From: a virus | Lineage: Duplodnaviria; Caudoviricetes | Direction: 5' to 3' (one strand) | Virus record (IMG/VR): IMGVR_UViG_3300013297_000004 | Coordinates: 992-64,991 of that record | Length of the DNA: 64,000 bases | Part shown: positions 4,095 through 59,700 of the stretch, piece by piece | How positions within the stretch are numbered: the stretch's first letter is position 1 | Layout of the letters: the number at the start of each line of letters is the position of its first letter | The notes under the pieces: model-generated | Database searches by the model: none | What the model was told of the DNA's origin: nothing | The model's input: the letters and a program-made list of their open reading frames with translations, nothing else | Position numbers and translations under genes: made by a program

Positions 4095-4285
4095 TGCGTT
4101 ACGCCCGGGGCGTAAGTCTCGCCCTGTGCCTTGCCGGGTGTGGTCCCCCTGAGATCGTGGCGATCTCGCCGACGCTGAAGTGCGAACAGGTGGTCAAGTG
4201 CCACATCTTCACATGGCAGCTTGGCCCCAAGAGTGTACTCGCGTTGTCAGGTACGCACGTCGTTTGCAAATGCGAAGGAGATTAA
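4094..4285 (+). CDS. predicted lipoprotein (possible o-spanin-like)
   Basis: MRYARGVSLALCLAGCGPPE...: short signal peptide with lipobox LAG-C; ATG overlaps previous stop. Confidence 0.55.
   Translation: MRYARGVSLALCLAGCGPPEIVAISPTLKCEQVVKCHIFTWQLGPKSVLALSGTHVVCKCEGD
4099..4115. repeat. 17-bp palindrome copy (perfect), start of lipoprotein CDS
   Basis: TTACGCCCGGGGCGTAA. Confidence 0.95.
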
Positions 4286-4286
4286 C

Positions 4287-4463
4287 ATGCTCGGCTTGGT
4301 CCTCGTCATTATACTCGTCCTCCTGCTGATCGGCGCGCTGCCGCACTGGCCGTACACGCAGTCCTACGGCTATGGCTACTGGCCGTCCGGCGTCTTCTTC
4401 ATCATCCTGCTGGTCCTCGTCGTCCTGATGCTAACGGGGCGGCTCGGCACGCTCACGCTCTAG
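4287..4463 (+). CDS. DUF3309-family small membrane protein
   Basis: MLGLVLVIILVLLLIGALPHWPYTQSYGYGYWPSG...LMLTGRL matches the DUF3309 pattern (LIGALPxWPYSxxWGYxPSG); AAGGAG SD. Confidence 0.8.
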   Translation: MLGLVLVIILVLLLIGALPHWPYTQSYGYGYWPSGVFFIILLVLVVLMLTGRLGTLTL

Positions 4464-4472: not shown

Positions 4473-4670
4473 ATGCCCAGCAAGAGTGCCAGCCAGCAGC
4501 GCCTGATGCGTGCCGCTGCTCACACGCCGGGCGGCTATGGCGGGGTTAGCCAGAAGGTCGGCCGCGACTTCGTCAACGCCGACAAGAAGGTCGGCACAAA
4601 GTTTGCCAAGGGCGGTAAGATCAACGCCTACTGCGCAGGCGGCAAGGTGGTCAGCACGCGGAGGATGTGA
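4473..4670 (+). CDS. conserved small phage protein (MPSKSxxQxRLM type), two GG motifs
   Basis: AGGAGG SD; N-terminus typical of small late-region phage proteins; FAKGGKI and YCAGGKV. Confidence 0.7.
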
Positions 4671-5357: not shown

Positions 5358-8330
5358 TCAGTTGAAGTCGAAGAACCCCGGCAGCAGGCTCAGGTCTAGG
5401 TCGATCACGTCTTGCCGTATGCCTTTGATCTCGGTGTTGGAAGCCAGATCGGCCTTGATGAACTTGACGCCGGGGATGTGTTCCCTGATCGCGACCAGCA
5501 GTTCCGACTTCCCGAGGTCGCGCTCCTTCTTCGTCCATCCAGTCAGGGCGCTGAGCCCGATACGGACGAAGCCATCGACGGATGCTACCCGACCGACGAT
5601 GGACTTGTTGCGGACGTCGAACACGTTGTGATGGCCGATGTTCCAGCCGGTTGGCGGGTGGCCCATGTTGCGCCAGACATGCTCGGACATAAGCATGCGA
5701 TCTCGATTGCCACCGATGAAGTCAGAGAGGAGGCGTTCGACGCCTTCACGGTTCGTGAGATTATTTGCCGAGTGCCTTCTACTGCCGCGCTGTTCCTGCA
5801 GCTGCTCAGTCATAAAGCCCGCCAACTGATCTATATTCATGGCCGTGTGATTGAGGTGGTTGGCGTACTTCGCACCACACAACGTGACCGCCATTTCAGC
5901 GATCCAGAAGCGGTCGTTGGTGGTTCCCTTTACGGCGTTATTCACGGCATCCTGCATCCGTGCCACGTTATCTCGCACGAGGTCGATGTTGGCTCCGAGG
6001 AACTTCGAGTACTCCAGTCCAGCATGGCCGCAGTTGCTTTGGAGCGAGCCGATAAGACGCTGGGCTACGGTATGCTCGATCATGCCGATCCCTTTGACGT
6101 TCTCGTAGGCGCGGACCTCCCATACCCGGTTGATGCCCGCGACCGTGCTGGGATCGTACTCGGCGAGATAGCCGTGTAGAGGGGAGTTACCAGCAGAGAT
6201 CAGCATCGTCTGCCATGTATAAATCGGCATGGCGTGCGACGACCGATTGAGCCGTTCCTTGGTCGCTCCCGCCTGCACCTGCATGATCAGGTCGACCAGC
6301 TTCTTGTCGTTGCCCTTCTTCAGCTCGTCGTAGATCAGGGGAACGTTGCGCAGCTGGCCCAGCTTGTTGTTCACGGCATTGGGCGTGTCGGCGATCTTGG
6401 ACAGCTTGGACGTGCTGCCCCACACTGCCTGAGCGACGTGCAGGGCAGTACTCTTGCCGGTGCCGCTATCGGGCGACCAAAGGTGCATCACGACGCCGTT
6501 GTATCCTGTCCACAGGAGCAGTGCCGCGCCATACGATGCTGCGACTACGGCGTTCAACTCTGGCCGCTGCTGGTCAGTGACCAACCGGGCAGCATCCTTC
6601 CAAACCTGCATGTCGCCGCGCGGCGTGTAGAGGTCGTCGATCTCCTTGTCGAGTGGCTGGATGTCGACAGGTGCCGAGCCGTTCCACCGCTTACGGCCAT
6701 AGCACCAGCCGTTCCAGTCGCCCGCAGCGTTCTGCGACCAGCCGAACGGTTTGCAGTCGATGATGTTCTTTTTGGCGTTAGCCAGCTGCTGCGTAAATGC
6801 GACCATGAAACCCTGCAATAATTTGGCCTGCTCGGCGTCAGTGTTAAGCCCTTGAAGGCCCAGTAGTTCGCGCATCCTATCCAGCCGCATGATCTCGCCG
6901 TAGGTGAGCTGGATCAACCGGACAGTGCCGGGCATGATCTCGCAGTGGAACCCGACACCAAACGCGCCGCCCTCTGCCGACTTCTCGATGGCGCGGAGAT
7001 TATAGATCGGTAGGTCGACAAGGTTCTTCGGTGTCGCGCCTGCTGCCGGGTCATTCGGGTTGCTGACCAGCTTGTAGATGCGCAAAGTCGGGGTCTGCCC
7101 GTAGCCGCTGGGCAGTTCCCGCTGCATGGGCACAATGGGCCCAGCAGGGACTGAAGGGGATGCAGCAATTGCGGCGGCAGCGGCAACTGCGACGACCACC
7201 TTGGGTAGGGCGAAGTTGAGCGGCGATCTGCCCTTCGGCAGGTGCGGGCAGACCCGGCACTCCTGCGCCCCGGCGTCGTGAATGGTGCGGCACTGCGGCC
7301 AGCCGATCCGCTGACTTGCGTGCGACCGCACGACCTCGTCGAACTTGGCGTCGGTCTCGCGTTCGCTGTAGGTCGCATGGCCGTCGCTCAGCTCGTGCGC
7401 GACCTCCTCGCCCTGCTGCAGGTAGTAGGCGACCTTCAAGGTCTCGAACCACAGCGGCTCGCCATACCCAGCGCCGTGGTTCAGCTTGGTTGCTTCAAGG
7501 AACCCGCAGCCGCCATTGATCACGTCCTCAAGGGTCGGCGTGTAGCCCTCGATGCCGTCATCGAGGCGGCCGGGCAGCGCCACTCCGGCGAACACCGCCG
7601 ATGGCTTGCCGAGGTTCAGGTGCTGCGGCGCGCTCGGAGTTACGCCCCGCGCGTAAGCTACCTTGTAGGGGGTGAGGATACCGTCGAGCAGCGCCAGCGG
7701 GTACTCGATCCCGTCGTCGTGCGCCAGCACCGCCATCCGGGGCGGCGACCATTTGTGGTTGAAGGTGCCGGGGATGCGCATCAGCGCCACCGGGTTGGTC
7801 GTCAGCTTGAGGTCGGCCTTGTAGCCCTCGCGGCGGCAGGCTTCGGCCAGAGCGAACGCCAGCGGCTCCCAGACCGTCTTCAGGATCGGCTCGTCCAGTA
7901 TCCAGTGGGCGTGGAAGCCCCCCGAGCCGGACAGGATCACCATGCTGGGTACCGGCAAGCCGACCTTACGCCGCCAGACCCCGAATTCGGTCAGAGCGTG
8001 GGTAGTGTCACGGTACTCGCCGTTCTTGATATCGACGTCGATCCAGATCGCCTTGTAGGCGACGGCATTGAGTTCAGCTCGGATCGCCCCCCGCCGCTCG
8101 CGGCCCGCCTTCGTCGTCGGCAGCTTGGTCTGCGACTGCAGGCTCATGCAGATGTACAGGTCCACCGGCTGACGCATCATGCCGTTGACGAACCCGACCG
8201 ACGTCTGGAACTGCTGGAAGGCCCGGCCGGGCATTACGCCCTTGAACGGCCAGTGAATATTGACGAAGCCCTGCAGCGTGGCCGATGGCCACGGCACCAC
8301 GCGAGCTAGAAACCTATCGACGTCCGACAT
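5358..8330 (-). CDS. DNA primase-helicase (RepB-like primase N-terminus, Cys-rich linker, DUF927 helicase)
   Basis: WIDVD, SGSGGFHAHW, LMRIPGTFNHK primase motifs; CxxI...CxxCPH; Walker A SPDSGTGKST, Walker B LIYDE, KERLNR of the DUF927/Cch family. Confidence 0.88.
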   Translation of the reverse strand: MSDVDRFLARVVPWPSATLQGFVNIHWPFKGVMPGRAFQQFQTSVGFVNGMMRQPVDLYICMSLQSQTKLPTTKAGRERRGAIRAELNAVAYKAIWIDVDIKNGEYRDTTHALTEFGVWRRKVGLPVPSMVILSGSGGFHAHWILDEPILKTVWEPLAFALAEACRREGYKADLKLTTNPVALMRIPGTFNHKWSPPRMAVLAHDDGIEYPLALLDGILTPYKVAYARGVTPSAPQHLNLGKPSAVFAGVALPGRLDDGIEGYTPTLEDVINGGCGFLEATKLNHGAGYGEPLWFETLKVAYYLQQGEEVAHELSDGHATYSERETDAKFDEVVRSHASQRIGWPQCRTIHDAGAQECRVCPHLPKGRSPLNFALPKVVVAVAAAAAIAASPSVPAGPIVPMQRELPSGYGQTPTLRIYKLVSNPNDPAAGATPKNLVDLPIYNLRAIEKSAEGGAFGVGFHCEIMPGTVRLIQLTYGEIMRLDRMRELLGLQGLNTDAEQAKLLQGFMVAFTQQLANAKKNIIDCKPFGWSQNAAGDWNGWCYGRKRWNGSAPVDIQPLDKEIDDLYTPRGDMQVWKDAARLVTDQQRPELNAVVAASYGAALLLWTGYNGVVMHLWSPDSGTGKSTALHVAQAVWGSTSKLSKIADTPNAVNNKLGQLRNVPLIYDELKKGNDKKLVDLIMQVQAGATKERLNRSSHAMPIYTWQTMLISAGNSPLHGYLAEYDPSTVAGINRVWEVRAYENVKGIGMIEHTVAQRLIGSLQSNCGHAGLEYSKFLGANIDLVRDNVARMQDAVNNAVKGTTNDRFWIAEMAVTLCGAKYANHLNHTAMNIDQLAGFMTEQLQEQRGSRRHSANNLTNREGVERLLSDFIGGNRDRMLMSEHVWRNMGHPPTGWNIGHHNVFDVRNKSIVGRVASVDGFVRIGLSALTGWTKKERDLGKSELLVAIREHIPGVKFIKADLASNTEIKGIRQDVIDLDLSLLPGFFDFN
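7640..7656. repeat. 17-bp palindrome copy inside primase-helicase
   Basis: TTACGCCCCGCGCGTAA. Confidence 0.9.
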
Positions 8331-8399: not shown

Positions 8400-9785
8400 T
8401 CACAGCAGGTTCTTGACCGTACTCATGATCGAGGCGACGGCCGCATCAGGGCCTGCTCCGTTCGTCGGCGGGGTGGGCAGAACCATGGTCGGCTGGGCCC
8501 CGGGCGGGGTCATCGGCATGGCCTGAGCTACTGCCTCAGGCGTCGGCGCTGGAGCGCCAGCGATCTGGCTGCTGTCCATGTTGGCCGGCTGGACCGGCGG
8601 GGTGCGCGGCCGTCCCCGGCCCCGCTTGACGGGCTCCTGACCGCCGAACTGCGCCATGAACGCCGCTGCCATCTCCGGGGTCATGCCCGGCGGCAGGGTG
8701 ACACCCGGCGGCAGGGCCGCCTGCGGCTGGGGCGGTGGCGGCTGCGGCTGGGGCTGCGGCACCGGCACAGGCTGCTGCACAGGCGGCGGGGGAGGCGGCT
8801 GTGGGGTCTGGGACGGCTCCGGCTGCGGCGGCGGGGTCTGGGTGGGCTGCGGCTGGGTCGCCGTTTCACGAGTGAACTGCGGCTTCTCAGTACCGGCCGT
8901 TACCGTCATGACGGTCTCGGCGACCGGGGTGCGCCGTAGGTGATCGGGCATCGGGTTGGCTTCCGCCTGCCCCTTCGGCTGGCCGTTTACGCCCGGGGCG
9001 TAACCCGTCGTCAGGGTGGTGTCGTCCCACGCCTCGGCGGTCCGCAGCTCGATGTTCAGGATGCGGTCGATCAGCGGATGGTTCATCATCTTGACCACCT
9101 GCTGGGCCTGCGCGTCGTTCAGCGCCGACATGGCGTCGAAGTTGAACAGCGGGTAGGCCGACTGCGCCTCGAAGGTGATCCGGGTCCAAACCTGAGCGTA
9201 GTGAAAGCCGTTGGCCTCCAGCGCGTTCTGGTAGGGGCCCAGCCGCTTGAGCGACGTCGGCGGCACGTTCAGCATCATCGGCCCGCCATAGTACTTGTTC
9301 TCGATGTCGCCGACCGGCACCACGGCCAGCCGCTTGCTGTCCATGCACGCCTTGCCACGCGTCGCTTCGCCGGTATCGCGGTTGACCTTGCTGCCCCAGA
9401 CGTTCCACTGGCAGCCGATGCAAGTTGCGCATTGCATCTTAGGGACGCCGACGTCGGGCTTGAGCCCGTTGGTCGACCAGCAGTCGGGCGGCGCGCTGTC
9501 ACCCTCGGAGAACAGGCCCTCGTACCACGCCTTCGACGGGTGCCCTGCCGACCGCAGGATGACCACGTCGAGGAAGGGCGACTGGATGATCGTGTTGTCC
9601 GGCATGCGGGCCTGCACCGGAGTGTACTGGCCCTGATACTTGATGCCCCACTTCGAGCCCTTGTAGCTGATCTTGGCGAAGCCTGCGCTGACGCCGTCGT
9701 CGAGCCGCTGGGTCGGCAGGTGGACGCCCTGAAAGGCGGTCGAGACCTGCCCGCCATGCTTAAAGATCGTCAGTTCACCAGTCAT
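8400..9785 (-). CDS. putative ssDNA-binding/annealing protein with Zn-finger and Pro/Gln-rich tail
   Basis: PDCWSTNG...QCATCIGCQWNVWGS...GKACMDSKRLAV is a conserved phage replication-module family; tail is low-complexity with AT-hook KRGRGRPR. Confidence 0.65.
   Translation of the reverse strand: MTGELTIFKHGGQVSTAFQGVHLPTQRLDDGVSAGFAKISYKGSKWGIKYQGQYTPVQARMPDNTIIQSPFLDVVILRSAGHPSKAWYEGLFSEGDSAPPDCWSTNGLKPDVGVPKMQCATCIGCQWNVWGSKVNRDTGEATRGKACMDSKRLAVVPVGDIENKYYGGPMMLNVPPTSLKRLGPYQNALEANGFHYAQVWTRITFEAQSAYPLFNFDAMSALNDAQAQQVVKMMNHPLIDRILNIELRTAEAWDDTTLTTGYAPGVNGQPKGQAEANPMPDHLRRTPVAETVMTVTAGTEKPQFTRETATQPQPTQTPPPQPEPSQTPQPPPPPPVQQPVPVPQPQPQPPPPQPQAALPPGVTLPPGMTPEMAAAFMAQFGGQEPVKRGRGRPRTPPVQPANMDSSQIAGAPAPTPEAVAQAMPMTPPGAQPTMVLPTPPTNGAGPDAAVASIMSTVKNLL
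8987..9003. repeat. 17-bp palindrome copy (perfect) inside SSB-like gene
   Basis: TTACGCCCGGGGCGTAA. Confidence 0.95.
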
Positions 9786-11914: not shown

Positions 11915-12633
11915 CAGTAGGACCCCTTGCCGAAGTACGGGCAGCTGCTGACCGGGCAGTGGTGCTTGCACAGGCCAGAGGGGTTGGGGGGATACTCGCT
12001 GGTCAGCGCCGCCTGTCGCATCGCAGTTACGCGCGGGGCGTAACGAGCCCACAGGTACGGCATCTCGTTGCGGCTGAACAGCTCCTCGGTCTTGAGGTCT
12101 TCCTTCAGCCAGACGAACTGACAGAGCGCATGCGTCGCCTCGGGGTAGTGGGCGAACGCGGTGGCGGCGGTGAGCAGCAGCTGGTCGCTGCCCTCTTTGA
12201 ACTTGCCGGTCTTCCAGTCGATGATCCTGATGTACGGCAGCCTGATCTTGATCACGTCGGCGACGGTGCGGAACCACGGCTGTAACTTTTTGTCGAAGTA
12301 TTCACAGGGTTGCAGCTGATTGGTAACAGCCATCTTATGCTCGCAGCGGGTGACGACCTGCGTGCGGTCGGAGTTCTCCATCGCCCACTCGGCCCACTTC
12401 TCCCACTGCTTCATGCCCTCCGGCAGCGCCTTCAGCTTGCAGATGCGGTCGGCCAGAGCGGCATGAACCTTGAAGCCCCAGTCGCGATCCGGCCCGCCCT
12501 TGTCGACGAAGTCTTTCTTGATCGTGGAGTGGTAGAACTTCTTGGCGCAGGTCTCAAAGTTGTCGAGCGCGCTGAACGACCACGAGAATGGCTTGGCGAC
12601 GGCCTTGCCGTCGAAGGTGGTGGTGACGCTCAT
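11914..12633 (-). CDS. PD-(D/E)XK exonuclease (RecB/Cas4-like)
   Basis: WSFSALDNFETC, VHAAL, ADVI..IIDWKTGK, QL, C-terminal LCKHHCPVSSC Cys cluster. Confidence 0.88.
   Translation of the reverse strand: MSVTTTFDGKAVAKPFSWSFSALDNFETCAKKFYHSTIKKDFVDKGGPDRDWGFKVHAALADRICKLKALPEGMKQWEKWAEWAMENSDRTQVVTRCEHKMAVTNQLQPCEYFDKKLQPWFRTVADVIKIRLPYIRIIDWKTGKFKEGSDQLLLTAATAFAHYPEATHALCQFVWLKEDLKTEELFSRNEMPYLWARYAPRVTAMRQAALTSEYPPNPSGLCKHHCPVSSCPYFGKGSY
12027..12043. repeat. 17-bp palindrome copy inside exonuclease
   Basis: TTACGCGCGGGGCGTAA. Confidence 0.9.
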
Positions 12634-12806: not shown

Positions 12807-12835
12807 AATCTACCATCCTGTGGGGATAGTGTCAA
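12807..12835 (-). promoter_or_regulatory. sigma70-like promoter driving nuclease/helicase/primase genes
   Basis: Minus strand TTGACA-N17-TAGATT. Confidence 0.55.
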
Positions 12836-13300: not shown

Positions 13301-13317
13301 TTACGCCCCGGGCGTAA
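13301..13317. repeat. 17-bp palindrome copy (perfect) between terminator and endolysin RBS
   Basis: TTACGCCCCGGGCGTAA. Confidence 0.95.
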
Positions 13318-13587: not shown

Positions 13588-15488
13588 TTGGCATCTCCGT
13601 AGCGGTCGACGCCGTCGCTGATGGATGTGTCGAGCGGTACGTTCGGCATCCAGTCAGGCGAGCGACGCATCTCGGCGGCGATCAGGGGCTTGACGATCTC
13701 AACGTACTGGTTGGGGACGACGTATACTAGCTCGTCGTGGGTAGTGTGTGTCAAGCGGCAACTGTATTCTTCGAGCGGCTTCTTGAGGCGCACCGCGACC
13801 GTCATCGTGCTGCAGCGCGCGAGGAACTGGATGATGTTCTCAAGCCACTTGCCGCCGTACAGCTTGGTGGTGACGCCACCATAGTCGAACACCCACTGAC
13901 CCTCGTCGTAGCGCAGGTTGTGGTAGTACAGGCAGAGCCCGGTCGGCCCGACGATGCGGCCCTTCTCGAACCGGATCGGGCCATACTCGAAGGTGCCGCC
14001 GGAACCGGCGATGATGCCGAACTGGCGCGGCAGCCAGTACCACATCGCAGCGATGCGGTCGTAGCGGCGACGGAAGCCCTGCACCACGCGCTCGCTCTCG
14101 AAGTCATCGAGCCACACGGGCTCGCCGCCCGCCTTGAAACTCTCGACCCAGACGCTCTGCTGGAACCGGGGAGCGGCGGCTTGGTAGCCCAGCTGCAGCA
14201 CGCCGATCTTGCCGATGAAGCGGATTACGCCGATGTCGTCGGCGAAGTTCTGGTAGACGTCGTCGCCTCGGGCGAACTCGTCGAGCAGGTTCTGCTGGCC
14301 GCAGAACCCGGCGTTCATGCGGCACTCGATCTGACGGGCGTCGGCGACGATCAGCTTGTGGTCCGGTGGAGCCATGATGGCGCGGCGGATCGGCGACGTG
14401 CGCCCCCAGTTCTGGCAGTTCAGCTTCCAGCCACCGCCCAGCCGGTGGGTATGCGCCGCACCGACGATCAGCGGGATCGGCATAACCTGAGAGCCGCCAT
14501 GATGCGGGAAGTCGAGGCCGCCGATGTTGATCATGCGCTGGGTGCGGGTCTCCTCGATGGTCGACTTGAAGCCCAGCCGGGCCTCGACAATGGCAACGAC
14601 GCGCGGGTCGTCGTGGTCGAGCAGGGCGAGGAATTCGGGATCGGTACGGGAGAAGGCATGGGTCATGAGCCCAGTGGTCTTGCTCAGCTTCATCGGCGGC
14701 TCGACGCCGTAGTTGTTCAGCAGGTCGGCGAACTGAGGGTTGCTCATAAGCTGGGACTTGTCTTCGAGCCCAGCAAACATCGCGTGCATGAACAGCTTCT
14801 GCTTGCTCCACTGGACCTCGCCCAGATGCTCGTGCAGCAGATCGGTATCGAGCCTGAGCGTGGGCTCGATGGCACAGCGTGCGATGATGTCGTGCAGGAT
14901 CAATTCCTCGGGCGGCAGCAGGGGAAGCAGGTGGAGGAAGATCGCGCGGCAGATGGCGGTGTCCTGCAGGCAGTAGGCTGCCTCGTCGTCCCACAGGCCA
15001 TTGGCGATGATGTCGGCGCGGGTCATGCCCTTGACCGTCTGCACCATGGTGCCCTTCCGCAGGCCGAGGTACTGGGCGATGGTGCCGAGATCGACGCGCT
15101 TGAGGATGTGGGCCAGCAGGGTGCGGGCCATGGCCAGCGTGTCGACGATCAGCTTGGGCACATAGTCGTAGCGCCAAGACAGGATGGCCATGTCGAACAG
15201 CGCGTTGTGCGACACCATGGCGACGTTGTCGGGCAGGTTGTCGAGGAAGTCGGGGATGTCCGGTCCGTCGATCAGGAAGGGCGTATCGGTGAAGCCCTTG
15301 GCGACGCCGAGGCAGATCGCCTCAAAGCGTGGGTCCAGTATGTAACTGGGAGGATCGAGGGAGCGGAGGGTGTAGTCGCTACTGTAAAAAGTTTCAAAGT
15401 CGACGAACCAGAATTCAAGGTCGTCGTTACGCGCAGGGCGTAAGTCGGGCATGGTCCCCATGGATGAAGTGTATGCCGGGGGGACCAT
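13584..15488 (-). CDS. polA: family A DNA polymerase with 3'-5' exonuclease
   Basis: DFET and HNALFD exonuclease motifs; motif A ADARQIECR, motif B RFIGKIGVLQLGY, motif C THDELV. Confidence 0.92.
   Translation of the reverse strand: MVPPAYTSSMGTMPDLRPARNDDLEFWFVDFETFYSSDYTLRSLDPPSYILDPRFEAICLGVAKGFTDTPFLIDGPDIPDFLDNLPDNVAMVSHNALFDMAILSWRYDYVPKLIVDTLAMARTLLAHILKRVDLGTIAQYLGLRKGTMVQTVKGMTRADIIANGLWDDEAAYCLQDTAICRAIFLHLLPLLPPEELILHDIIARCAIEPTLRLDTDLLHEHLGEVQWSKQKLFMHAMFAGLEDKSQLMSNPQFADLLNNYGVEPPMKLSKTTGLMTHAFSRTDPEFLALLDHDDPRVVAIVEARLGFKSTIEETRTQRMINIGGLDFPHHGGSQVMPIPLIVGAAHTHRLGGGWKLNCQNWGRTSPIRRAIMAPPDHKLIVADARQIECRMNAGFCGQQNLLDEFARGDDVYQNFADDIGVIRFIGKIGVLQLGYQAAAPRFQQSVWVESFKAGGEPVWLDDFESERVVQGFRRRYDRIAAMWYWLPRQFGIIAGSGGTFEYGPIRFEKGRIVGPTGLCLYYHNLRYDEGQWVFDYGGVTTKLYGGKWLENIIQFLARCSTMTVAVRLKKPLEEYSCRLTHTTHDELVYVVPNQYVEIVKPLIAAEMRRSPDWMPNVPLDTSISDGVDRYGDAK
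15427..15443. repeat. 17-bp palindrome copy in 5' end of polA
   Basis: TTACGCGCAGGGCGTAA. Confidence 0.85.
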
Positions 15489-16237: not shown

Positions 16238-16254
16238 TTACGCCCGGGGCGTAA
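16238..16254. repeat. 17-bp palindrome copy (perfect) at promoter start site
   Basis: TTACGCCCGGGGCGTAA. Confidence 0.95.
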
Positions 16255-18400: not shown

Positions 18401-18801
18401 TTCATCCTCCTCTTGCGCTTGCGGATCAGTCGTTCGATTACGCCCCGGGCGGAACTCCCGGGTTTTCGGATTTCACGCTTGCCGTGCTTGCACGCCGCCG
18501 TGCCGCTGGCGAACAGCGGCACCGGGCTTTCGTACTCGAACACGGACGGCGCGATCTTGTGGTGGTGCAACCTGAGAGCCAGCGAGTTGGCGGCATGGCA
18601 GCCGACCCACCCGGCGCATAATTGGCCGTCGTTCTGGTGGCAGAAGAACAACGCGGTCGCTCCTTTGAGCGCCTGATGGATGATCTGCCCGTCGTAGTCG
18701 GGCAGCTTGTCGTACTCGTTGGCGGCCCACACGCCGCTCGGCACGTCCTTGCGATAAGGGCAGGACCTGCAGGGTGCCTTCGCGCAGGTATACTTGATCA
18801 T
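18397..18801 (-). CDS. DUF6283-like protein
   Basis: PCRSCPYRKDVPSGVW..EYDKLPDYD...FFCHQ...LCAGW...SPVPLFASG. Confidence 0.7.
   Translation of the reverse strand: MIKYTCAKAPCRSCPYRKDVPSGVWAANEYDKLPDYDGQIIHQALKGATALFFCHQNDGQLCAGWVGCHAANSLALRLHHHKIAPSVFEYESPVPLFASGTAACKHGKREIRKPGSSARGVIERLIRKRKRRMK
18438..18454. repeat. 17-bp palindrome copy inside DUF6283-like gene
   Basis: TTACGCCCCGGGCGGAA. Confidence 0.9.
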
Positions 18802-19623: not shown

Positions 19624-19640
19624 TTACGCCCGGGGCGTAA
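19624..19640. repeat. 17-bp palindrome copy (perfect), intergenic
   Basis: TTACGCCCGGGGCGTAA followed 18 bp later by half-site TTACGCC. Confidence 0.95.
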
Positions 19641-20169: not shown

Positions 20170-20186
20170 TTACGCTCGGGGCGTAA
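20170..20186. repeat. 17-bp palindrome copy, intergenic
   Basis: TTACGCTCGGGGCGTAA preceded by TTACGC-TACGC half-sites. Confidence 0.9.
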
Positions 20187-20433
20187 CTGCCCCGCCACAG
20201 GACGGCAACGGGTCAACGCCCGTTGCCGTCTTTGCCGAAGTTGAAGTGCATGTGTTCGCGCAGATCGCGGGCAAGGCTGTCGAAGTCGAGGTAGACCTTC
20301 TTCAGCACGATGATCCCTTGCTGGGTCGACGACGACTGCTTGCGGATCACCATCTGTGCGCCATTGTCCATCTGCTCGATGGTTGCCTTGAGGGTATGGT
20401 CGTTGCGCTCGACCTCAATGGTCCGAGGTTCTT

Positions 20434-21813: not shown

Positions 21814-21830
21814 TTACGCTCCGGGCGTAA
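21814..21830. repeat. 17-bp palindrome copy providing a stop codon
   Basis: TTACGCTCCGGGCGTAA. Confidence 0.9.
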
Positions 21831-23311: not shown

Positions 23312-23633
23312 CGCTCAGTCTCCTGTCGTTGTTGAATGTCTCGTCGTCGTCATCGTCATTGATTACGCCCCGGGCGTATGTGAACCGACTGTATAGTGGT
23401 TCCCAATTCGCACCGTCCTTATACTCCAGTTTTTGCGGCAGGTTATTAAGCAGCCGCTCGTCATCCTCGATGCGGTCGATGTCGATCTTGGTCAACACCC
23501 ATGCCGTCTCGGGGTCGTCAGTCCAGCCCTTGGTAATCGACCAATACAGCAGGCGGTCCTCGGGCCCATGCCATGTTAGGGCATGTGGCGTAGTGTCGTT
23601 GATATCGTCCTCGTCGATCATTGGTTGCTCCAT
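23265..23633 (-). CDS. acidic hypothetical protein containing an in-frame palindrome copy
   Basis: ORF track; TYARGVI encoded by the repeat. Confidence 0.55.
   Translation of the reverse strand: MEQPMIDEDDINDTTPHALTWHGPEDRLLYWSITKGWTDDPETAWVLTKIDIDRIEDDERLLNNLPQKLEYKDGANWEPLYSRFTYARGVINDDDDDETFNNDRRLSDGQTKVGLTRERRET
23363..23379. repeat. 17-bp palindrome copy, intragenic
   Basis: TTACGCCCCGGGCGTAT. Confidence 0.9.
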
Positions 23634-23664: not shown

Positions 23665-24186
23665 TCACCACCCTGTTACAGCGTCAACCGTGTCTTGCGG
23701 CTTCTGCCAGCGATAGCCGAAGCCGGTGTAGTTCTCTATCCAGTCCCATTTGGGATCGCAGTTCTCGAACTTGCGCCTGATGCGCTTGACCAGTGACCGC
23801 ACGTTGGTGCGATAACCGTCTGTCCCACCCGCCGCGAAGCCAGCGTAGTGGACGTTGTCGTAGACCACGCGATACGAGATGAACGTGCCGATGTGGTCGA
23901 TCAGTAGCCCGACGATCCTGAACTCGGTCGTCGTCAACTCGACGTCGTTGCTGCCCCAGAAGGCGCGCTGCATGGCGAACTGCAGTCGCAGTTGTCCCAA
24001 CGTCAGGTCCTTGCGCGTCGGCTGATTGCGCAGGTGCCAGTAGTTGTGGATGACCGTCAGCAGGTAGTCGGTCGTCACGTTGGTATAACCGCGACGCCAT
24101 GTATCGAGGTAGTCACGCAGCGCGTTCGGGTTCTTGCTGCGGTGTAGTTCCTGCGCCTTGTTATGCGCAGCCGTGGCTTGTGACAC
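23665..24186 (-). CDS. OmpR/PhoB (ChvI-like) winged-helix DNA-binding protein lacking a receiver domain
   Basis: VELTTTEFRIVGLL...ISYRVVYD...TNVRSLVKRIRRKF...IENYTGFGYRW = Trans_reg_C; start re-assigned to GTG 24186 after GGGAG SD. Confidence 0.85.
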   Translation of the reverse strand: MSQATAAHNKAQELHRSKNPNALRDYLDTWRRGYTNVTTDYLLTVIHNYWHLRNQPTRKDLTLGQLRLQFAMQRAFWGSNDVELTTTEFRIVGLLIDHIGTFISYRVVYDNVHYAGFAAGGTDGYRTNVRSLVKRIRRKFENCDPKWDWIENYTGFGYRWQKPQDTVDAVTGW

Positions 24187-24467: not shown

Positions 24468-24484
24468 TTACGCGCGGGGCGTAA
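24468..24484. repeat. 17-bp palindrome copy, intergenic after FkbM gene
   Basis: TTACGCGCGGGGCGTAA. Confidence 0.9.
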
Positions 24485-26165: not shown

Positions 26166-26182
26166 TTACGCCCCGGGCGTAT
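26166..26182. repeat. 17-bp palindrome copy, intergenic
   Basis: TTACGCCCCGGGCGTAT. Confidence 0.9.
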
Positions 26183-27143: not shown

Positions 27144-27176
27144 TTACGCCCCGGGCGTATGTTACGCCCGGGGTAA
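27144..27176. repeat. tandem pair of palindrome copies (second has 2-nt deletion)
   Basis: TTACGCCCCGGGCGTAT-G-TTACGCCCGGGGTAA. Confidence 0.9.
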
Positions 27177-27194
27177 CTATTTGCAAATGACTTC

Positions 27195-28443: not shown

Positions 28444-28460
28444 TTACGCCCGGGGCGTAT
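28444..28460. repeat. 17-bp palindrome copy before RBS
   Basis: TTACGCCCGGGGCGTAT. Confidence 0.9.
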
Positions 28461-29783: not shown

Positions 29784-29800
29784 TTACGCCCCGGGCGGAA
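29784..29800. repeat. 17-bp palindrome copy
   Basis: TTACGCCCCGGGCGGAA. Confidence 0.9.
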
Positions 29801-30687: not shown

Positions 30688-30722
30688 TTACGCGCGACGC
30701 GTAACTTACGCCCGGGGCGGAA
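30688..30722. repeat. tandem pair of palindrome copies
   Basis: TTACGCGCGACGCGTAA-C-TTACGCCCGGGGCGGAA. Confidence 0.9.
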
Positions 30723-30847: not shown

Positions 30848-31552
30848 TTACTCGGCGTCCACTTCTTCCTTCGCCGCCTTGCGAGCCTTGACGATGTTCT
30901 TCGCCAGCGGCTTCGCCTGCTCGGCGGCCTTGATCATGGCCACGATGAACTGATTGCCCTTGTCATCGGACCACCACTTCTTCAAGCCCTTCACCTGCCG
31001 CAGCACGCTCATGAGCGTGCGCTCGCCGTTCGTCACGATGATCGGCGCGTTCGTGTTCTTGCCGTTCTTGTGACCGCCCGCGCCGCGACGCTGCAGCTTG
31101 CGCTCGTTCAGCTTGCGCATGATCGCGTCGCGTGACGGCGCGGCCTTCGCGTTCTTCTTCGCGTCGCCCTTCACCTTTTCGCGAACGAACTTGCTCACGA
31201 CCTTGAGCATCTCGCGGTTCACGTCCATGCCCTTGAAGTAGTCGAACACTGTCGGCCAGCACGCGTACTCGCTGAGCCGCAGTATCGACTTGAACTCCGA
31301 GATGCGCGACGCCTTCAACGTCGCGACCTTGCGCGGATCGTGTGCGAGCGTGCGAGCCTTCTGCAGCTTCGCGTTGATCGCGGTCAAGATCGCGCGAGCG
31401 TTGTCCGGCGAAGCGTGACCGTTCCAGCACGCCTCGACGAACGCGCGGCAAGCGGCGAGCGTGCCCTTGCCTTCCGCCATGGTCGCGTTGACTTGCAAGT
31501 CAATCGCCTTGCCAACGGGACCGTTCGTGTAGTTCACCTTAATCGCAGCCAT
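30848..31552 (-). CDS. Lys/Ala-rich basic protein, first gene of leftward arm
   Basis: Start re-assigned to ATG 31552 (GAGGAG SD); own terminator; two palindromes upstream. Confidence 0.75.
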   Translation of the reverse strand: MAAIKVNYTNGPVGKAIDLQVNATMAEGKGTLAACRAFVEACWNGHASPDNARAILTAINAKLQKARTLAHDPRKVATLKASRISEFKSILRLSEYACWPTVFDYFKGMDVNREMLKVVSKFVREKVKGDAKKNAKAAPSRDAIMRKLNERKLQRRGAGGHKNGKNTNAPIIVTNGERTLMSVLRQVKGLKKWWSDDKGNQFIVAMIKAAEQAKPLAKNIVKARKAAKEEVDAE

Positions 31553-31566: not shown

Positions 31567-31583
31567 TTACGCCCGGGGCGGAA
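31567..31583. repeat. 17-bp palindrome copy directly before RBS of 30848-31552 gene
   Basis: TTACGCCCGGGGCGGAA. Confidence 0.9.
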
Positions 31584-31649: not shown

Positions 31650-31666
31650 TTACGCCCGGGGCGTAC
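31650..31666. repeat. 17-bp palindrome copy in divergent control region
   Basis: TTACGCCCGGGGCGTAC. Confidence 0.9.
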
Positions 31667-32999: not shown

Positions 33000-33016
33000 T
33001 TACGCCCCGGGCGTAA
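33000..33016. repeat. 17-bp palindrome copy (perfect) upstream of Tad2-family gene
   Basis: TTACGCCCCGGGCGTAA. Confidence 0.95.
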
Positions 33017-37336: not shown

Positions 37337-37358
37337 GTTACGCCCCGGGCGTAACTTG
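37334..37358. repeat. extended 25-bp palindrome copy containing TerL start codon
   Basis: CAAG-TTACGCCCCGGGCGTAA-CTTG. Confidence 0.95.
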
Positions 37359-43598: not shown

Positions 43599-43625
43599 GG
43601 ACCTTACGCCCCGGGCGTAAGGTCC
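43599..43625. repeat. extended 27-bp palindrome copy after capsid gene
   Basis: GGACC-TTACGCCCCGGGCGTAA-GGTCC. Confidence 0.95.
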
Positions 43626-52264: not shown

Positions 52265-52807
52265 ATGGCCGACCACGACAAACACCCCACCCCGGCTACG
52301 ACTGCCGTGGCTCCGACCGTCACGGAGGTGCCGCCGACCAAGCCGATAGCGGCTGAGGGCGAAGGCAGCATGACGGGCGTCAGCATGGGCCTCTACTCGG
52401 CTGGGGCGGTGCCCAAGGTCGAAGGCGAGCCGGTCGACTATGCCGCTAACGCCGAGGCAGCGGCAGCGTACATCGTGTCGCCGATGCCCGTGATGATGAG
52501 CGACGCCGACGCTCTGATCGTCGGTCGTTCGGTCGAAGCGCGCTACATCCCGCCGCCTCCGCCGCCCAGCGTCATCGAGCAGCTGACCGCGATGGCAGCT
52601 CCCCCGGATGCGCCTCCGCCGGAAGGCGGCGCGCTCGACGCGTCGGCAGCAGGCCAGCGTGCGGCCTACGGCGCTACTCCGCCAATTACGCCGCAACGCG
52701 ACGCCATGCGACGTGAGCATCCGCTTGGCCACGGCCCGCAAGCGACGCCGACGCCACATCCGGCTCCGGCTCCGGCTCCGGTACCGCCGCCGCCGCACCG
52801 GCCGTAA
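52265..52807 (+). CDS. Pro/Ala-rich hypothetical protein
   Basis: AAGGAG SD. Confidence 0.6.
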   Translation: MADHDKHPTPATTAVAPTVTEVPPTKPIAAEGEGSMTGVSMGLYSAGAVPKVEGEPVDYAANAEAAAAYIVSPMPVMMSDADALIVGRSVEARYIPPPPPPSVIEQLTAMAAPPDAPPPEGGALDASAAGQRAAYGATPPITPQRDAMRREHPLGHGPQATPTPHPAPAPAPVPPPPHRP

Positions 52808-52808: not shown

Positions 52809-52825
52809 TTACGCCCGGGGCGTAA
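52809..52825. repeat. 17-bp palindrome copy (perfect) filling the gap before the nozzle gene
   Basis: TTACGCCCGGGGCGTAA, ATG follows 2 nt later. Confidence 0.95.
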
Positions 52826-52827
52826 CG

Positions 52828-55396: not shown

Positions 55397-56705
55397 CGTA
55401 CACCTTCTCACTGATCCATGGGCCCCTCACCCGGTAGTGAACCGGCACATCTGCAGTGGCGGTGGAGGCGGCGACAGTAGTTCGCCCGCGCCCGACTACA
55501 CCGCCTACATCGCCGACATGTCCTCGACTGGCCATCAGCTGCAGGGCTATGGGGCCGACCTGTTCTCGTGGGCGAAGAACATGGGCGTCGACCTCTCCGC
55601 CATCGCCAAGGGGGCTGGCGAGGCGGCGGGCGGCGCAGCGACCAGCCAGCAGGCTACTTCCGATCAGATGATGAAGGATTGGAAGTCGACCTACGATCCG
55701 CTCTACAAGGCGCAGGCCGACGACGCGACGCGGATGATCAAGGACCTCCCGACGACGGAGGAGCAGTACGCGGGCAAGTTCGGTGCCGACACTGCGACCG
55801 CCATCGACCAAGGGCTGGCTGCCGAGAACCGCAAGCAGCAGTCGCTCGGCATCTCGCCGGGTGTCGCTTCGACGGCACTCGATACACAGGCGCGGATCGG
55901 CCGCGCAGCGGCGACCACGGCAGCTGCCGAGCAGGGTCGCATGCAGGCGCGCACCGAGGCGCGCAACGTCACCGGCACGGCGATCAACGCCGGTCAGTTC
56001 ATCCCCGGCGTGTCGGGCCAGCAGGCCGGGCTGGCGACCGCCAATCGCAATCAGCAGGTGGCGCTGCCCTCGACGGCGGCCTCGACTACGGCCGGGCTCT
56101 ACAGCCCGTCGCTGGGCTACTATCAAGCCGCGACGCCATACATGAAGGCGTGGGGCGACACCATGATGGGGGCCGAGAAGAACCAGCTGGAGCGCGATAA
56201 GATGAAGGCCGAGAACAGCGACGGCGGCATCATGAGTACGCTGCTGCCGTTGGCTGGTGGCATCGCTGGGTCGTTCTTCGGCCCGATGGGCAGCGCGGTC
56301 GGATCGAGCCTCGGCAAGGCGGCGGGCACGGCGATGACCTCGGCGACCGGCGGCAAAATCCCACCGCGCGGTGGTCGACGCATCCGGCGCTACGCAGGTG
56401 GCGGAGCCATCGACACCGCACCGCCGATGGATCAGGGCAACATGGTCACGCCCGAGATGTCGCCGAGCGGTGGGCAGAACGTCGATGACGTTCCGGCCAT
56501 GGTGAGCGAGGGCGAGTTCGTGATCCCCGAGCGTACCGTCGACTGGTACGGCGAGAAGTTCTTCCAGAACCTGATCGGCAAGGCCGACAAGGAAGCGCAG
56601 AACGAGACTGTCGCCGCGCCCGAGGAAGCACCTGCCGACAGCCCGCAGGCGCAGGCGCTCAACACGATGCCGCCGCAGTTCAGGTCGGAAGGAGCTAGGG
56701 TATGA
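55383..56705 (+). CDS. internal virion/ejection protein
   Basis: GGGG..PAPD N-terminus, Ala/Gln-rich helices, GG-rich TM-like segment, DDVPAMVSEGEFVIP domain. Confidence 0.72.
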   Translation: MFTPDVHLLTDPWAPHPVVNRHICSGGGGGDSSSPAPDYTAYIADMSSTGHQLQGYGADLFSWAKNMGVDLSAIAKGAGEAAGGAATSQQATSDQMMKDWKSTYDPLYKAQADDATRMIKDLPTTEEQYAGKFGADTATAIDQGLAAENRKQQSLGISPGVASTALDTQARIGRAAATTAAAEQGRMQARTEARNVTGTAINAGQFIPGVSGQQAGLATANRNQQVALPSTAASTTAGLYSPSLGYYQAATPYMKAWGDTMMGAEKNQLERDKMKAENSDGGIMSTLLPLAGGIAGSFFGPMGSAVGSSLGKAAGTAMTSATGGKIPPRGGRRIRRYAGGGAIDTAPPMDQGNMVTPEMSPSGGQNVDDVPAMVSEGEFVIPERTVDWYGEKFFQNLIGKADKEAQNETVAAPEEAPADSPQAQALNTMPPQFRSEGARV

Positions 56706-59700
56706 GCAAGCACCTGCAGCACTTCGTCGACAACTTCCTGAAAGGCGCGATGCTGGGCTCGCACTGGATGGAACTCGCCGACAAGGCACAAGACCGCAAG
56801 GACCAGCGTGAGATCGCCCGCGAGAAGAACCGCATCACCGCGCAGCAGCATCAAGACCGCATGGGCATCGACCGGGAGAAGGCGTCGGCCTACGGCGAGC
56901 AGGCTCGGGCTACGGCAGACTGGATGCGGCGTCGGCAGTCGGGGGGCGGCGGTGGCGGCGGCGGGGCAACGCTATCGCCGGGCTCTCAGCAGTTCCTCGA
57001 ACTGGCGCGCCGGTCAGGTCTCGACGTCACGCCGACGCCAGATGCAGCGCCTCCGCGAGCCGTACAGCAGGACGACCCGGAACCCGGGCAGTCCGATCCT
57101 CCAGCGACGTCGGAACCAGTCATCACCGATGCACGCGGCGGCAAAATCCCCCAGCGTTACGCCCGGGGCGGAAGGGCTGGCCGCAACCAGCAGATGATGA
57201 CGTCGATGATGAAGGCTGGTCAGGGCGCTGTGGATCGGATCAGTCGTGACAGGATGGGTACGCCGATCAACCCGGCTGCTCCCGCGCCGACTATGCTGCG
57301 TCGCCCGAGCGTGCCGGTTGCTACCGATCAGGGTGCAGGCACCGCTGGTCCCGGTTCGGGCTACGGCGACACGGCCGCGCCGCCGGTCACGGCACAGGCG
57401 ATCCAGCCGACCTACGACCCCTCGGTCGATCAGGGCACTTACCGGCGCGGTGGCCGGGTGAAGCGGTTCCAAGAGGGCGGCAGCGTCGATGATGACCGGC
57501 TGCTCCGCCCACAGACCGGCGGACCGAGTACCAACTTCAAGGCTGGTCAGGGCCGCGCGATGGTCGGCGGCAACTACGATCCGAGCGGCCAGTACATGCA
57601 GGCCGAGGCGGGCTACGAGCATCCCGTGGGTCGCAGCGGTCGTGTCGGCATCCAAGGCAACTTCGGCAAGTACGTCGGCCCCGGGGGCAACGAGGCCAAG
57701 CCCGACTGGGGCGTCGGCGTGCGCGGTCGTGTCCGGTTCAACAAGGGTGGGCAGGTGCGCGGCTACGCGGGCGGTGGCGACGTGCTGCCACCGACCGACC
57801 CGGTCGATCAGGGCTACATGGTCCTCGACAACGGCCAAGTCGTGCCGGTGCCGAAGGGCGACCGCGAGTGGAGCATCTTCCCGCCGCGCTCGCAGGCGGG
57901 CCGCGATCAGCTGACCAAGGAGGACACCGAGAACCGGCGCGCCACCGAGGTCAGGCGCACGCTGGCGTCGCAGACCGGACCGACGACGCACGGCACCTAT
58001 GTCAGCCGCGACGGCCGCGCGAACGAAGAAGGCTACAGCTTGGACCTGCCGCCGGATCGGGAACCGCCGATGCCGAGGTTCCCGGGTCCTGACCAGCCGC
58101 ATGGTCCCGGCATGCCGCCGACCTCGCCCGAGGAAAGCTGGCCGCGCCCGGCTGGTGCACCGCGTGGTGGTGGCGGCAGTGGAGGCGGTGGAGGCGGCGG
58201 CGGCGGTCGGCGCGCGATTGCGACCGACGAGCCGTGGAAGAAGCTGGGCGATCAGACCCGCACCAAGGCTTACGATCCCGAGAAAGACATGCTCGACGAG
58301 CGCAACATCCACGCGACCGACCCGGAGACCGGCGCGACGCGCGGCTGGACCCAGCAGCGTGTCATCATGGACGACAAGGGCAAGGTGGCGCGGGTCGAGA
58401 ACTCGGTGAACGACTACCAGACCGGCGCGCTCAAGTACGCTCAGTCGGTCGCTAAGAACCATCCGCAGGAACTCTACAACGGGACCGGCGCGCCTGATCC
58501 GAAGTCGATGGAACAGGTCATGCAGATCGTCGACCCCGACGGCAAGATGCCGGTGCAGCAGCGCATGGATGCTGCCGCCAAGACGGTACACGAGTGGTAC
58601 GTCCAGCAGGGTAGCCCGCAGGCCGCCGACCGGGCAGCGTTCGAGATCAAGCAGTACGGCGTCACCCAGAGCCGCCAGTTCGGTGTGCAGGCGGCGAAGG
58701 CGGCCCAGCAAGGCGACATGCAGGGCGCGGTCCAGCAGCTGATCAAGGGCTACGAGTATGTGTCCAAGGACGGCGAACAGCCCGTCGTGCAGGGCAACAA
58801 CATCGTGATGGTCGGCAAGGACGGCAAGCCGACTGGCCAGACCTACCCGATCAGTCCGCAGATGATCACCAACCTCGCGCTCGGCATGGCGACCGGCAAG
58901 CTGGGTTGGGACGTGGCTGGCTTCGCGCCGCCGCAGCAACAGCCGCCAGCGGGCGGCGCTCCCCCTGCTGGCGCACCGCCGGGCGGCGCTCGTCCGGCGG
59001 CCCAGCCTTCAGCGGCTCCGGCTGGGCCTGCCCAACCCCCAGCCGCACCGGCCCAGACGACACAAGCCGCACCGGCTCAGACGCAAGCTATTCAGCCCAC
59101 GGTTCCTCCGCCCCCTGCAGCGCCGCCGCCAACGCCGCAGCCTGCCGGGGCAACCTCCCCTCCTGCGACGACACAAACCCAAGCGGCACAGCCGCCGCAG
59201 GAGGGGGGCGAGAGGACGCAGGCGCAGCAGATGGAGCCGACCGAGGAGAGCCTGCGGTTCAACAAGCAGCAGCTGCAGGCACAATGGATGAAGGAGCGTC
59301 AAATCCTTCAGGACGCCGCTGCCAAGATGGTGCCGAAGAACGAGCTGAGCAAAGTGCTGGGCCCGACCCTGTCGGCACACAAGGCGCGCTATGACCAGCA
59401 GGTCAGGGACCTCGACGAACAGTGGAAGCTGATGGTGCAGGAGCGACACACGAAGGAGGGCCGCACCGCCACCGAGACGGCACCAAGGAAGGTCGGGTTG
59501 ACCGATGCGGGTACGCTGAAGAAGACAATCGAGACCCGAGCAGGAGAGATCGCTGCTGATCCGAAGCTGCGCGAGAACAGCGTGCTGGAGAACCTGAAGA
59601 CCCCGGCTGACCTGAAGCCGTTGCACGATCTGGCGGCGCAAATCTACCGGCAGAACAACTCGGTGATGCAGCCGGAGGATGCGATGGACATCGCGGTGCA

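Follow-up and report, generated by a model that had tools for sequence, protein, structure and literature searches.

A dispersed palindrome of the early region in a podophage-like genome, and different palindromes at the same junctions of its relatives

The genome and its palindrome

The subject of this study is a 17-bp palindrome, TTACGCCCSGGGCGTAA, that lies scattered in 27 copies over a stretch of viral DNA (Duplodnaviria; Caudoviricetes), hereafter the window, which is 64,000 nucleotides (nt) long and comprises bases 992–64,991 of the IMG/VR record IMGVR_UViG_3300013297_000004 (64,991 bp, ~63% G+C). A single frame of 2884 codons stays in phase across the ends of the record (window 60045–64000 joined to 1–3708; genome 61036–4699), and the record is therefore a circularly permuted complete genome, podophage-like, of which the window covers nearly all. 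Gene calling predicts 82 genes and leaves a non-coding fraction of 0.072. The early and replication arm runs on the minus strand from ~31,550 down to 5,358 and contains a primase-helicase (DUF927), an SNF2 helicase, a PD-(D/E)XK exonuclease, a family-A DNA polymerase, a DUF2201 VWA/metallopeptidase and numerous small orphan genes, while the plus-strand arm encodes an SU10-type portal, the capsid, and tail-fibre-like and internal virion proteins. Among isolates, the closest are Rhizobium phages of the RHph_TM27A group (portal 52% identity, polymerase 40–41%), and the sequencing runs that contain sequence of the phage are DNA runs labelled as soil, rhizosphere or root metagenomes, with no RNA run among those listed.

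Exact matches to the palindrome number nine, against none in 100 dinucleotide-preserving shuffles, and allowing up to three mismatches there are 26 copies (9 perfect, 15 with one mismatch, 1 with two and 1 with three), against a mean of 0.12 and a maximum of 2 in the shuffles. The 27th copy, at 27162, is a 16-nt form that has lost one base and abuts copy 27144, and a further diverged copy with three mismatches lies at genome position 505, beyond the window. In this phage and in its relatives the arms are conserved and the central 1–4 bases vary; here the central base, read in the sense of transcription, is C in 13 copies and G in 12, so that there is no orientation bias. The exact pattern is found as a single copy in each of 25 of 185,579 reference species genomes and in each of 2 IMG/VR contigs, which rules out a host repeat of the repetitive extragenic palindromic (REP) kind, and no transposase of the Y1 (RAYT) family was detected in Pfam and PHROGs scans of nearly all 82 predicted proteins, the scans to which all statements on protein families below refer. 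Four of the DNA runs gave only short, low-depth contigs; a variant strain in them had 0 differences in 4 copies against ~2% elsewhere, a difference that is not significant and was not used.

The centres of 17 of the 27 sites are non-coding, as compared with the 0.072 of the genome that is non-coding (binomial p=1.5e-13). In the sense of the mRNA the usual order is a stop codon, the palindrome, a few bases, a Shine-Dalgarno (SD) sequence, usually 2–8 nt beyond the motif, and a start codon: five copies begin 1–4 nt past a stop, in two more the motif's own TAA is the stop, and seven (13301, 16238, 28444, 31567, 37338, 43604 and 52809) end 1–24 nt ahead of a predicted start, with copies 21814 and 27144 each 14 nt from an alternative ATG in the list of open reading frames. 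The other ten site centres fall inside gene calls, in some of which the motif overlaps the stop codon of the gene or the call itself is weak. The divergent promoter region contains two copies, and one of these precedes a TATAGT by 21 nt. Over the 60 nt that lead up to the copies no promoter hexamers are conserved, the flank consensus has no T run, and a scan for intrinsic terminators catches only copy 28444, on the non-coding strand; a site follows a sigma-70-like -10 hexamer by 3–5 nt at copy 16238 here and at 20130 in RHph_TM27A.

A preliminary description, made from the letters alone, had already counted nine perfect, 15 one-mismatch and three diverged copies, all at the start coordinates that a pattern scan recovers, and had asked for a shuffled control, which the enrichment given above (26 against a mean of 0.12) provides. 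Its remark that the copies crowd the early arm agrees with the 20 of 27 that lie between 12,000 and 32,000, its remark that many stand just before an SD or a start agrees with the gene calls, at distances of 1–24 nt, and searches of genomes and of IMG/VR confirm its view of the motif as a real, phage-specific, dispersed element of dyad symmetry and no REP-like repeat of a host.

Different palindromes at the same junctions in relatives

The same description had proposed a search of related phage contigs for the motif, and the relatives turn out to carry different palindromes at the same junctions. In the IMG/VR contig G001 (63,582 bp; 81% identity in the DNA polymerase) the element is TCACGCCCSGGGCGTGA (TCAC...GTGA), present in 18 perfect copies and in 21 at up to two mismatches, with none for the reversed control, and within IMG/VR this variant is multi-copy in G001's own contig only. 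Compared with the consensus of the present phage, every G001 copy has the same two symmetric substitutions. The more distant G002 (64,160 bp; 64% identity) has 24 copies of a TTACCT-N4-AGGTAA type, and the isolate RHph_TM27A (TM27A below) has 38 copies of GTTACC-N6-GGTAAC at up to one mismatch, three of them in its divergent region. In these four complete genomes the site centres are non-coding in 17/27, 13/21, 12/24 and 20/38 cases respectively, against non-coding fractions of 0.07–0.16 (p 1e-13 to 2e-7), and sites near gene ends are enriched in all four as well. G002 also has a second dispersed palindrome with 8-bp arms and a 5-bp centre, often abutting or overlapping the main one upstream of several early genes including the polymerase (among its loci L011–L014, for example at L011:1330, 3320, 6666 and 8470).

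A comparison of gene order with G001 shows that at least 10 junctions or intragenic places in the early arm and 4 in the late arm correspond. The shared early places are both sides of the first early gene, four further early junctions, the first codons of the polymerase gene (copy 15427, at 9206 in G001, and in G002 just upstream of the polymerase start at 8486), the place behind the polymerase beside a terminator, and places inside the exonuclease and primase genes; in both phages copies are also found in the divergent promoter region, upstream of an early -10-like box. Copy 52809 has its counterparts at 36263 in G001 and 41442 in G002, each in the local form of the motif. The intergenic flanks at shared junctions are barely alignable, with 5–24 identities in 45 positions anchored on the motif, and the motif itself is kept. 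Within the exonuclease gene the G001 copy is a hybrid, in which the arm that contains a conserved tyrosine codon is unchanged and the arm that contains a synonymous valine codon has the G001 form; since only the arm that can change synonymously has changed, this points to selection on the intragenic copies as well.

That the same substitutions occur in some 20 copies at conserved places is explained neither by drift nor by re-insertion, and a sequence-specific reader whose specificity has changed, with the sites following, is therefore strongly implied. Because close relatives differ, a reader encoded by the phage is the simpler inference from these comparisons, although the reader may also be a host factor, in different hosts.

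A metagenome scan by polymerase alignment, which covered 80 loci out of at least 543 relatives, places these genomes in a wider setting. Many of the loci have further palindromes in several copies each, one of them with 12 copies in 14.6 kb and another with 8 in 11.8 kb. Among flanks of at least 3 kb, 15 of 36 on the upstream (early) side have at least two exact copies of some palindrome (8 have at least three), as against 1 of 38 on the downstream side. The other 21 of the 36 upstream flanks examined have no palindrome, and no dispersed one is found in phiM6 and KPP25, other isolates with a related portal or polymerase, so that the trait is common in the family and not universal. Among the relatives the total length of the palindrome ranges from 13 to 18 bp, always as one contiguous unit capable of forming a hairpin, and in most variants the outer triplets are TTA, CTA or TCA with the complementary stop triplet (TTA..TAA, CTA..TAG, TCA..TGA), a regularity that is not separable from shared ancestry. 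Two G001 copies with a variant first triplet, TAA, use it also as the stop of the upstream gene. In a marine relative (L059) three of eight copies are directly preceded by the heptamer TAACCAT (at 589, 1093 and 2143), which we take to resemble a half-site of the alphaproteobacterial cell-cycle regulator CtrA.

Table 1. Copies of the palindrome and two proteins considered as its reader (positions in the window; gene strands in brackets where given).
Positions	Strand	Match or feature	Placement or remark
4099..4115		perfect	intergenic, 4 nt past stop of gene 3891-4094 (+)
7640..7656		1 mismatch	inside primase-helicase gene (5358-8300, -); similar place in G001 orthologue (16399)
8987..9003		perfect	inside gene 8400-9785 (-); no G001 counterpart
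12027..12043		1 mismatch	inside PD-(D/E)XK exonuclease gene; orthologous G001 copy is the hybrid
13301..13317		perfect	directly behind terminator-like hairpin (13353-13322, -), 13 nt ahead of start of endolysin-like gene 12832-13287
15427..15443		2 mismatches	first codons past ATG of DNA polymerase gene (13584-15488, -)
16238..16254		perfect	11 nt ahead of start of 15498-16226 (-); begins 5 nt past second hexamer of TTGACA-N17-TAATTG
18438..18454		1 mismatch	3' end of DUF6283 gene 18397-18801, 37 nt ahead of start of 18119-18400
19624..19640		perfect	1 nt past stop of 19642-20130; followed by a second hairpin
20170..20186		1 mismatch	26 nt past stop of 20213-20437, 39 nt ahead of start of 19642-20130
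21814..21830		1 mismatch	own TAA is stop of 21814-22044; 14 nt ahead of ATG 21799
23363..23379		1 mismatch (5' arm variant ATAC in sense)	within frame 23265-23621; syntenic with G001 1157
24468..24484		1 mismatch	23 nt past stop of FkbM methyltransferase gene 24508-25230
26166..26182		1 mismatch	33 nt ahead of start of 25956-26132
27144..27160		1 mismatch	14 nt ahead of ATG 27129 of frame 26305-27129
27162..27177		degenerate, one-base deletion	abuts 27144
28444..28460		1 mismatch	1 nt past stop of 28462-28809, 19 nt ahead of start of 28230-28424; fills most of a 37-nt gap
29784..29800		1 mismatch (TTCC variant in sense)	29 nt past stop of 29830-30066
30688..30704		3 mismatches	in ~780-nt non-coding gap behind first early gene
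30706..30722		1 mismatch	same ~780-nt gap, 125 nt past stop of 30848-31552; G001 counterpart 55697
31567..31583		1 mismatch	14 nt ahead of ATG of first early gene 30848-31552
31650..31666		1 mismatch	divergent intergenic region, 21 nt upstream of early-strand TATAGT; G001 counterpart 54729
33000..33016		perfect	1 nt past stop of 32453-32998 (+), 55 nt ahead of Tad2-like gene
37338..37354		perfect	own TAA is stop of 37338-37550 (-); ends 1 nt ahead of TTG start of large-terminase homologue 35900-37336
43604..43620		perfect	24 nt past major-capsid stop; palindrome extended by 4 more pairs
52809..52825		perfect	1 nt past stop of 52265-52807, 2 nt ahead of ATG of internal virion protein gene 52828-54630
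57157..57173		1 mismatch	inside gene 56702-60040
23665..24186	-	OmpR-type winged helix, Trans_reg_C E=1.5e-8	sole recognisable sequence-specific DNA-binding domain
30848..31552	-	first early gene; all-helical predicted fold	bracketed by copies in this phage, G001 and G002

Some of the genes beside the copies deserve mention in their own right. The protein encoded directly downstream of the perfect copy at 33000 (33072–33374) has a Tad2-like, anti-Thoeris domain (Pfam E=1.1e-15). The endolysin-like gene 12832–13287 (PHROG 894, E=1.8e-33) belongs to the replication arm, where a terminator and a palindrome copy precede it; its G001 homologue is in a different arm. The gene for the FkbM-type methyltransferase, 24508–25230, is without a homologue in the three relatives G001, G002 and TM27A, and the DUF6283 gene 18397–18801 has a copy near its 3' end. 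Behind the first early gene the non-coding gap at 30270–30600 is AT-richer and is followed by two palindrome copies; several copies of the 8-mer GACACAAG and its complement lie in it, in opposite orientation on its two sides, and the gap is a candidate replication origin.

A possible operator on double-stranded DNA and its alternatives

The sites are private to the phage, enriched at gene boundaries and, throughout the family, in the early region, and they are kept at their junctions while their sequence changes. The reading that we favour, with a probability of about 0.4, takes the palindrome as a phage-specific cis-regulatory site, an operator or roadblock for a regulator of early transcription that would bind the DNA as a symmetric dimer. 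A sequence-specific factor encoded by the phage would recognise the palindrome, most likely as double-stranded DNA, at sites that lie around the promoter region of the early genes and, along the early and replication arm, where genes or gene blocks have their 5' boundaries. Occupied sites would control transcription of the early arm as a whole, a site that overlaps a start point blocking initiation and a site inside an operon acting as a roadblock, and a possible outcome is that early genes are shut off or staged. Dyad symmetry, conserved half-sites and a free centre favour a dimeric DNA binder, as does the lack of compensation by wobble: the broken pairs of the palindrome in 16 genomes or loci comprise 22 G-T, 27 A-C and 82 others, so that pairing is not preserved in that way. 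Copies upstream of the early promoter, conserved intragenic copies and the weak stems of AT-richer relatives likewise argue for double-stranded DNA. The dimeric DNA-binding protein of the preliminary description accordingly remains the leading reading, while protein scans have not found the reader itself, and the roles in partition, compaction or protection of the genome that it also considered receive no support, because the sites track the 5' boundaries of early genes.

Several observations weigh against such an operator, and the first of them concern its reader, which the family scans did not reveal. The preliminary description had singled out three proteins. One of them (23665–24186) does have a winged helix (Table 1), yet this protein is present only in the phage and G001, is absent from G002, TM27A and the metagenomic relatives, and has a nearly identical recognition-helix (helix-3) stretch in the two phages although their motifs differ, which makes it a weak candidate, lineage-specific at best. 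The second, 26305–27129, has no family match in profile scans. The third is the first early protein (30848–31552), from a family of 44 representatives, whose predicted model improves from a pLDDT of 48.6 with a shallow alignment to 90.5 with 36 sequences; Foldseek finds nothing for this all-helical fold at E up to 0.001 and no match to a DNA-binding fold, the best VIA-align hit (Z 7.8) covers only the terminal helical hairpin, and the ESM Atlas leads no further than to viral clusters without names and, weakly, to DUF3102 (0.85 and 0.82). In TM27A a similarly placed gene is bracketed by copies and is not detectably homologous to it. As the description had stated, no CI-type repressor, integrase or ParAB appears in the family scans, which divergent proteins could escape, and there is no match to the ParB/KorB family in these scans, nor one in the fold comparison of the first early protein, which may nonetheless belong to it.

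On the same side of the balance is the outcome of scans for sigma-70-like promoters, which are not above shuffles and show no enrichment near the sites, and with it a group of features that would suit an element in the mRNA. Such an element, a hairpin between cistrons whose reader recognises RNA, is a serious possibility that we hold to be somewhat less probable than the operator; it could mask or frame the ribosome-binding site, with translation coupled to termination upstream, be the target of a phage-specific RNA-binding or RNA-cleaving protein, or protect 5' or 3' ends. The succession of stop, hairpin, SD and ATG described above is what would be expected of it, including gaps of 20–37 nt that are too small for a promoter. 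In the type shared by TM27A and G002 the 3' arm is itself the SD, and 11 of the 38 TM27A copies end 1–5 nt ahead of a start annotated in GenBank with the SD inside that arm; at the internal virion protein junction (copy 52809) the local motif stands 1–3 nt from the ATG in three genomes. A palindrome that ranges from 13 to 18 bp and yet stays one contiguous unit with a short loop is as compatible with a hairpin as with a dimer site. Three genomes have a longer palindrome behind the capsid gene (copy 43604), where compensating pairs are added that differ in G001 and G002, and the RNA fold there reaches -41.1 kcal/mol (z -4.1), with 0 of 200 shuffles as stable. In the sense strand, too, the 3' arm is better conserved than the 5' arm (58 against 75 deviations), an excess explained in part where the 5' arm coincides with an upstream stop codon or, in G002, with the second palindrome.

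Other evidence speaks against the hairpin. The broken pairs show no preference for the G-U wobble, and it is the stem sequence that is conserved and the loops that are free, the opposite of the pattern in known RNA-hairpin binders, which mostly read loops or bulges. Transcription is unlikely to reach the copies upstream of the early promoter, G001 retains intragenic copies that lie far from any start, the stems of AT-richer relatives have only 6–7 pairs with loops of 1–3 nt, and two of five local folds have a minimum-energy structure that lacks the motif hairpin. Nor can masking of the SD be the conserved function, because the motif of this phage and G001 does not include the SD and the sites nevertheless persist at the same junctions.

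A third explanation, which we regard as unlikely, is that the palindrome is a promoter or start-site signal, or the core of one, read by transcription machinery specific to the phage: an RNA polymerase delivered with the virion or made early, or a factor that redirects the host polymerase, perhaps by way of an extruded hairpin. The virion polymerase of phage N4 reads its early promoters as extruded hairpins with a 7-pair stem and a 3-nt loop, from which the transcript starts ~11 nt from the loop centre, and the 7-pair stem and 3-nt loop of the present element fit that geometry. The element is a feature of the early region across the family, the spacing of site, SD and ATG is short and regular (seven of eight copies in L091 have an SD-like run and an ATG within ~20–35 nt, and L059 and L110 are similar), several copies stand directly behind a terminator-like hairpin with no room for another promoter (13301; 11342 and 55697 in G001; 204 and 12466 in G002), and the genome encodes a virion-type protein of 2884 amino acids (aa). 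Against a promoter are the lack of any RNA polymerase or sigma family among the proteins scanned, the directionless symmetry of a perfect palindrome whose central base is almost evenly C or G, the site past the start codon of the polymerase gene, the conserved intragenic copies, and the SD inside the TM27A type, which a start point downstream of the element would remove. That the giant protein itself is an RNA polymerase receives no support from its sequence, there being no sequence match in the PDB at E<0.3 and, across four orthologues, neither a conserved DxDxD nor a motif-B-like pattern. Its PHROG matches are confined to the C-terminal part (unknown function, DarB-like), and its orthologues in the three relatives G001, G002 and TM27A measure 2307–3043 aa.

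Three further proteins or associations were considered in the search for a reader. A small basic protein (45–65 aa; window 4473–4670, L012:4338–4475) has a core of ~45 aa without a Pfam family and belongs to a family, very strongly conserved over hundreds of viral contigs, of which one search gave 982 proteins and another 494 IMG/VR stretches. The versions of this phage and G001 are divergent and extended at the C terminus. G002 and TM27A, which have the same type of motif, share 83% identity in this protein, against 44% to that of this phage. As reader it was rejected, since the family is kept at 80–90% identity while only 3 of 59 IMG/VR loci of at least 10 kb around it have three or more copies of any palindrome. 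An ATPase (20434–21558) together with the DUF2201 VWA/metallopeptidase (16818–18122) seemed to go with palindromes (14 of 17 against 4 of 19 loci), an association that proved to be an artefact of the flank covered: loci with near-identical polymerases differ, and L076, L092 and L118 have both genes and no palindrome. The primase-helicase (5358–8300) is only 42% identical to that of G001, compared with 67–87% for neighbouring replication proteins; the divergence is even along its length, with no hypervariable domain, and a role as reader is not supported by this comparison.

Known dispersed repeats and significance

No description of the palindrome or of the RHph_TM27A group was found in the literature searched, in which subscription journals lie outside the coverage, so that a prior description is possible. 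Scattered palindromes are familiar from the KorB operators of IncP plasmids and from parS-type centromere sites, ~13–16 bp in length and spread over a replicon, where one dimeric protein represses at a distance; the present sites share the scattering and differ in that they are tied to the gene starts of one arm, with no ParB/KorB-family match in the proteins scanned. The stoperators of Cluster A mycobacteriophages (L5 gp71), tens of short sites in short intergenic gaps at which one phage protein silences transcription along operons, are closer in mechanism, for here too many sites lie in short intergenic gaps along operons and the mechanism we favour is a silencing of the stoperator type. As characterised in the parts of PMC4351075 used here, stoperators are the asymmetric sites of a temperate immunity system and all face the same way with respect to transcription. 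The palindrome is symmetric and without orientation bias, and no repressor, integrase or partition family was seen in the protein scans; the label stoperator-like of the preliminary description, whose defining asymmetry, single orientation and temperate context are all lacking, is thus not retained.

Closest in kind are the repeats of Cluster O and Cluster K mycobacteriophages, both unexplained, to which the resemblance is one of kind with no homology of sequence. The Cluster O (Corndog group) repeats are described in the relevant parts of PMC4351075 as 17 bp long, with two 7-bp inverted arms and a 3-bp variable centre, in more than 30 copies per genome, denser in one arm, many of them intergenic and about one-third coding; the phages are not obviously temperate and have no integrase or ParAB, and the authors predict a dimeric DNA-binding protein and leave the function of the repeat unexplained. 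Our element agrees with what is reported there in its length of ~17 bp, inverted arms, variable centre, tens of copies, one denser arm and partly intragenic position. It is unrelated in sequence, host phylum (the nearest isolates here being Rhizobium phages) and virion type; many of its copies adjoin translation starts, to which the Cluster O sites are not closely linked, and whereas the five Cluster O genomes share one motif, close relatives here differ in motif at the same junctions, which points to a co-evolving reader. In Cluster K, according to the sections of PMC3203893 that deal with them, the start-associated sequences (SAS) are conserved repeats 3–7 bp before the start codons of non-structural genes that contain the SD core and are absent from the host, and the extended SAS (ESAS) inverted repeats differ between subclusters, their function being likewise unexplained. 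To the extent covered by those sections, the TM27A and G002 type, with its SD in the 3' arm 1–5 nt before the ATG, is a close likeness. The SAS is an asymmetric 13-bp sequence in one orientation, in contrast to the perfect palindrome found here, this phage and G001 have their SD beyond the motif, and copies occur also inside genes and upstream of the early promoter.

A comparison of another sort is offered by the PeSL cassettes of T4-type phages, which in the accounts consulted (parts of PMC2839356 and PMC4122927) are repeated motifs with a stem-loop before small variable early genes, linked to gene gain and loss. They provide the precedent for a last explanation, in our view very improbable, by which the repeats are mainly short homologies or boundary sequences for the shuffling of early-gene cassettes and any regulation is secondary. 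The sites do crowd together where orphan genes are most frequent, G001 has the endolysin-like gene of copy 13301 at another place, and gene 19642–20130, bracketed by copies 19624 and 20170, is absent from that junction in G001, where a 35%-identical homologue is found elsewhere, again behind a copy. A PeSL combines a sigma-70 promoter with a terminator, as there described, whereas only the 17-bp palindrome is present here, with no conserved hexamers and no U-tract. Moreover, 17 bp is very short for homologous recombination, the palindromes of relatives differ and the sites would thus hinder exchange between them, and recombination alone explains neither the same two substitutions in every junction copy nor selection on the intragenic copies; the Cluster O repeats, too, are rarely at indel boundaries in the passages of PMC4351075 that treat them. 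The DNA operator or roadblock therefore heads our ranking, followed by the RNA element, the promoter signal and the cassette boundary in that order, with the remainder left to other explanations.

Dispersed, genome-specific short repeats of lytic phages, such as the Cluster O palindromes and the Cluster K SAS, have gone unexplained for more than ten years, and the present case shows that an element of this sort can characterise the early region throughout a phage family. The feature is far from random, and evolution has maintained it. Different palindromes at the same junctions, in genomes at 81%, 64% and 41% polymerase identity, amount to natural specificity swaps that demand a co-evolving reader and supply ready controls, and because the trait occurs in cultured phages, the RHph_TM27A group on Rhizobium, the mechanism is directly testable. 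If the reader proved to be a new DNA- or RNA-binding fold whose specificity is easy to retarget, its use as a tool would be of interest too. A bolder idea, to which we give only a slender chance, is that a large and mostly uncultured podophage family (soil, freshwater, marine and the RHph_TM27A group) uses a private palindromic address code before its early genes, a different short palindrome for each phage, with a fast-evolving reader of no known fold, which may be virion-delivered machinery for transcription or RNA processing such as the virion protein of 2300–3000 aa. If this were true, early expression would be self-specific, closed to co-infecting relatives and to control by the host, and would represent, instead of a set of operators, a new class of phage gene-expression control.

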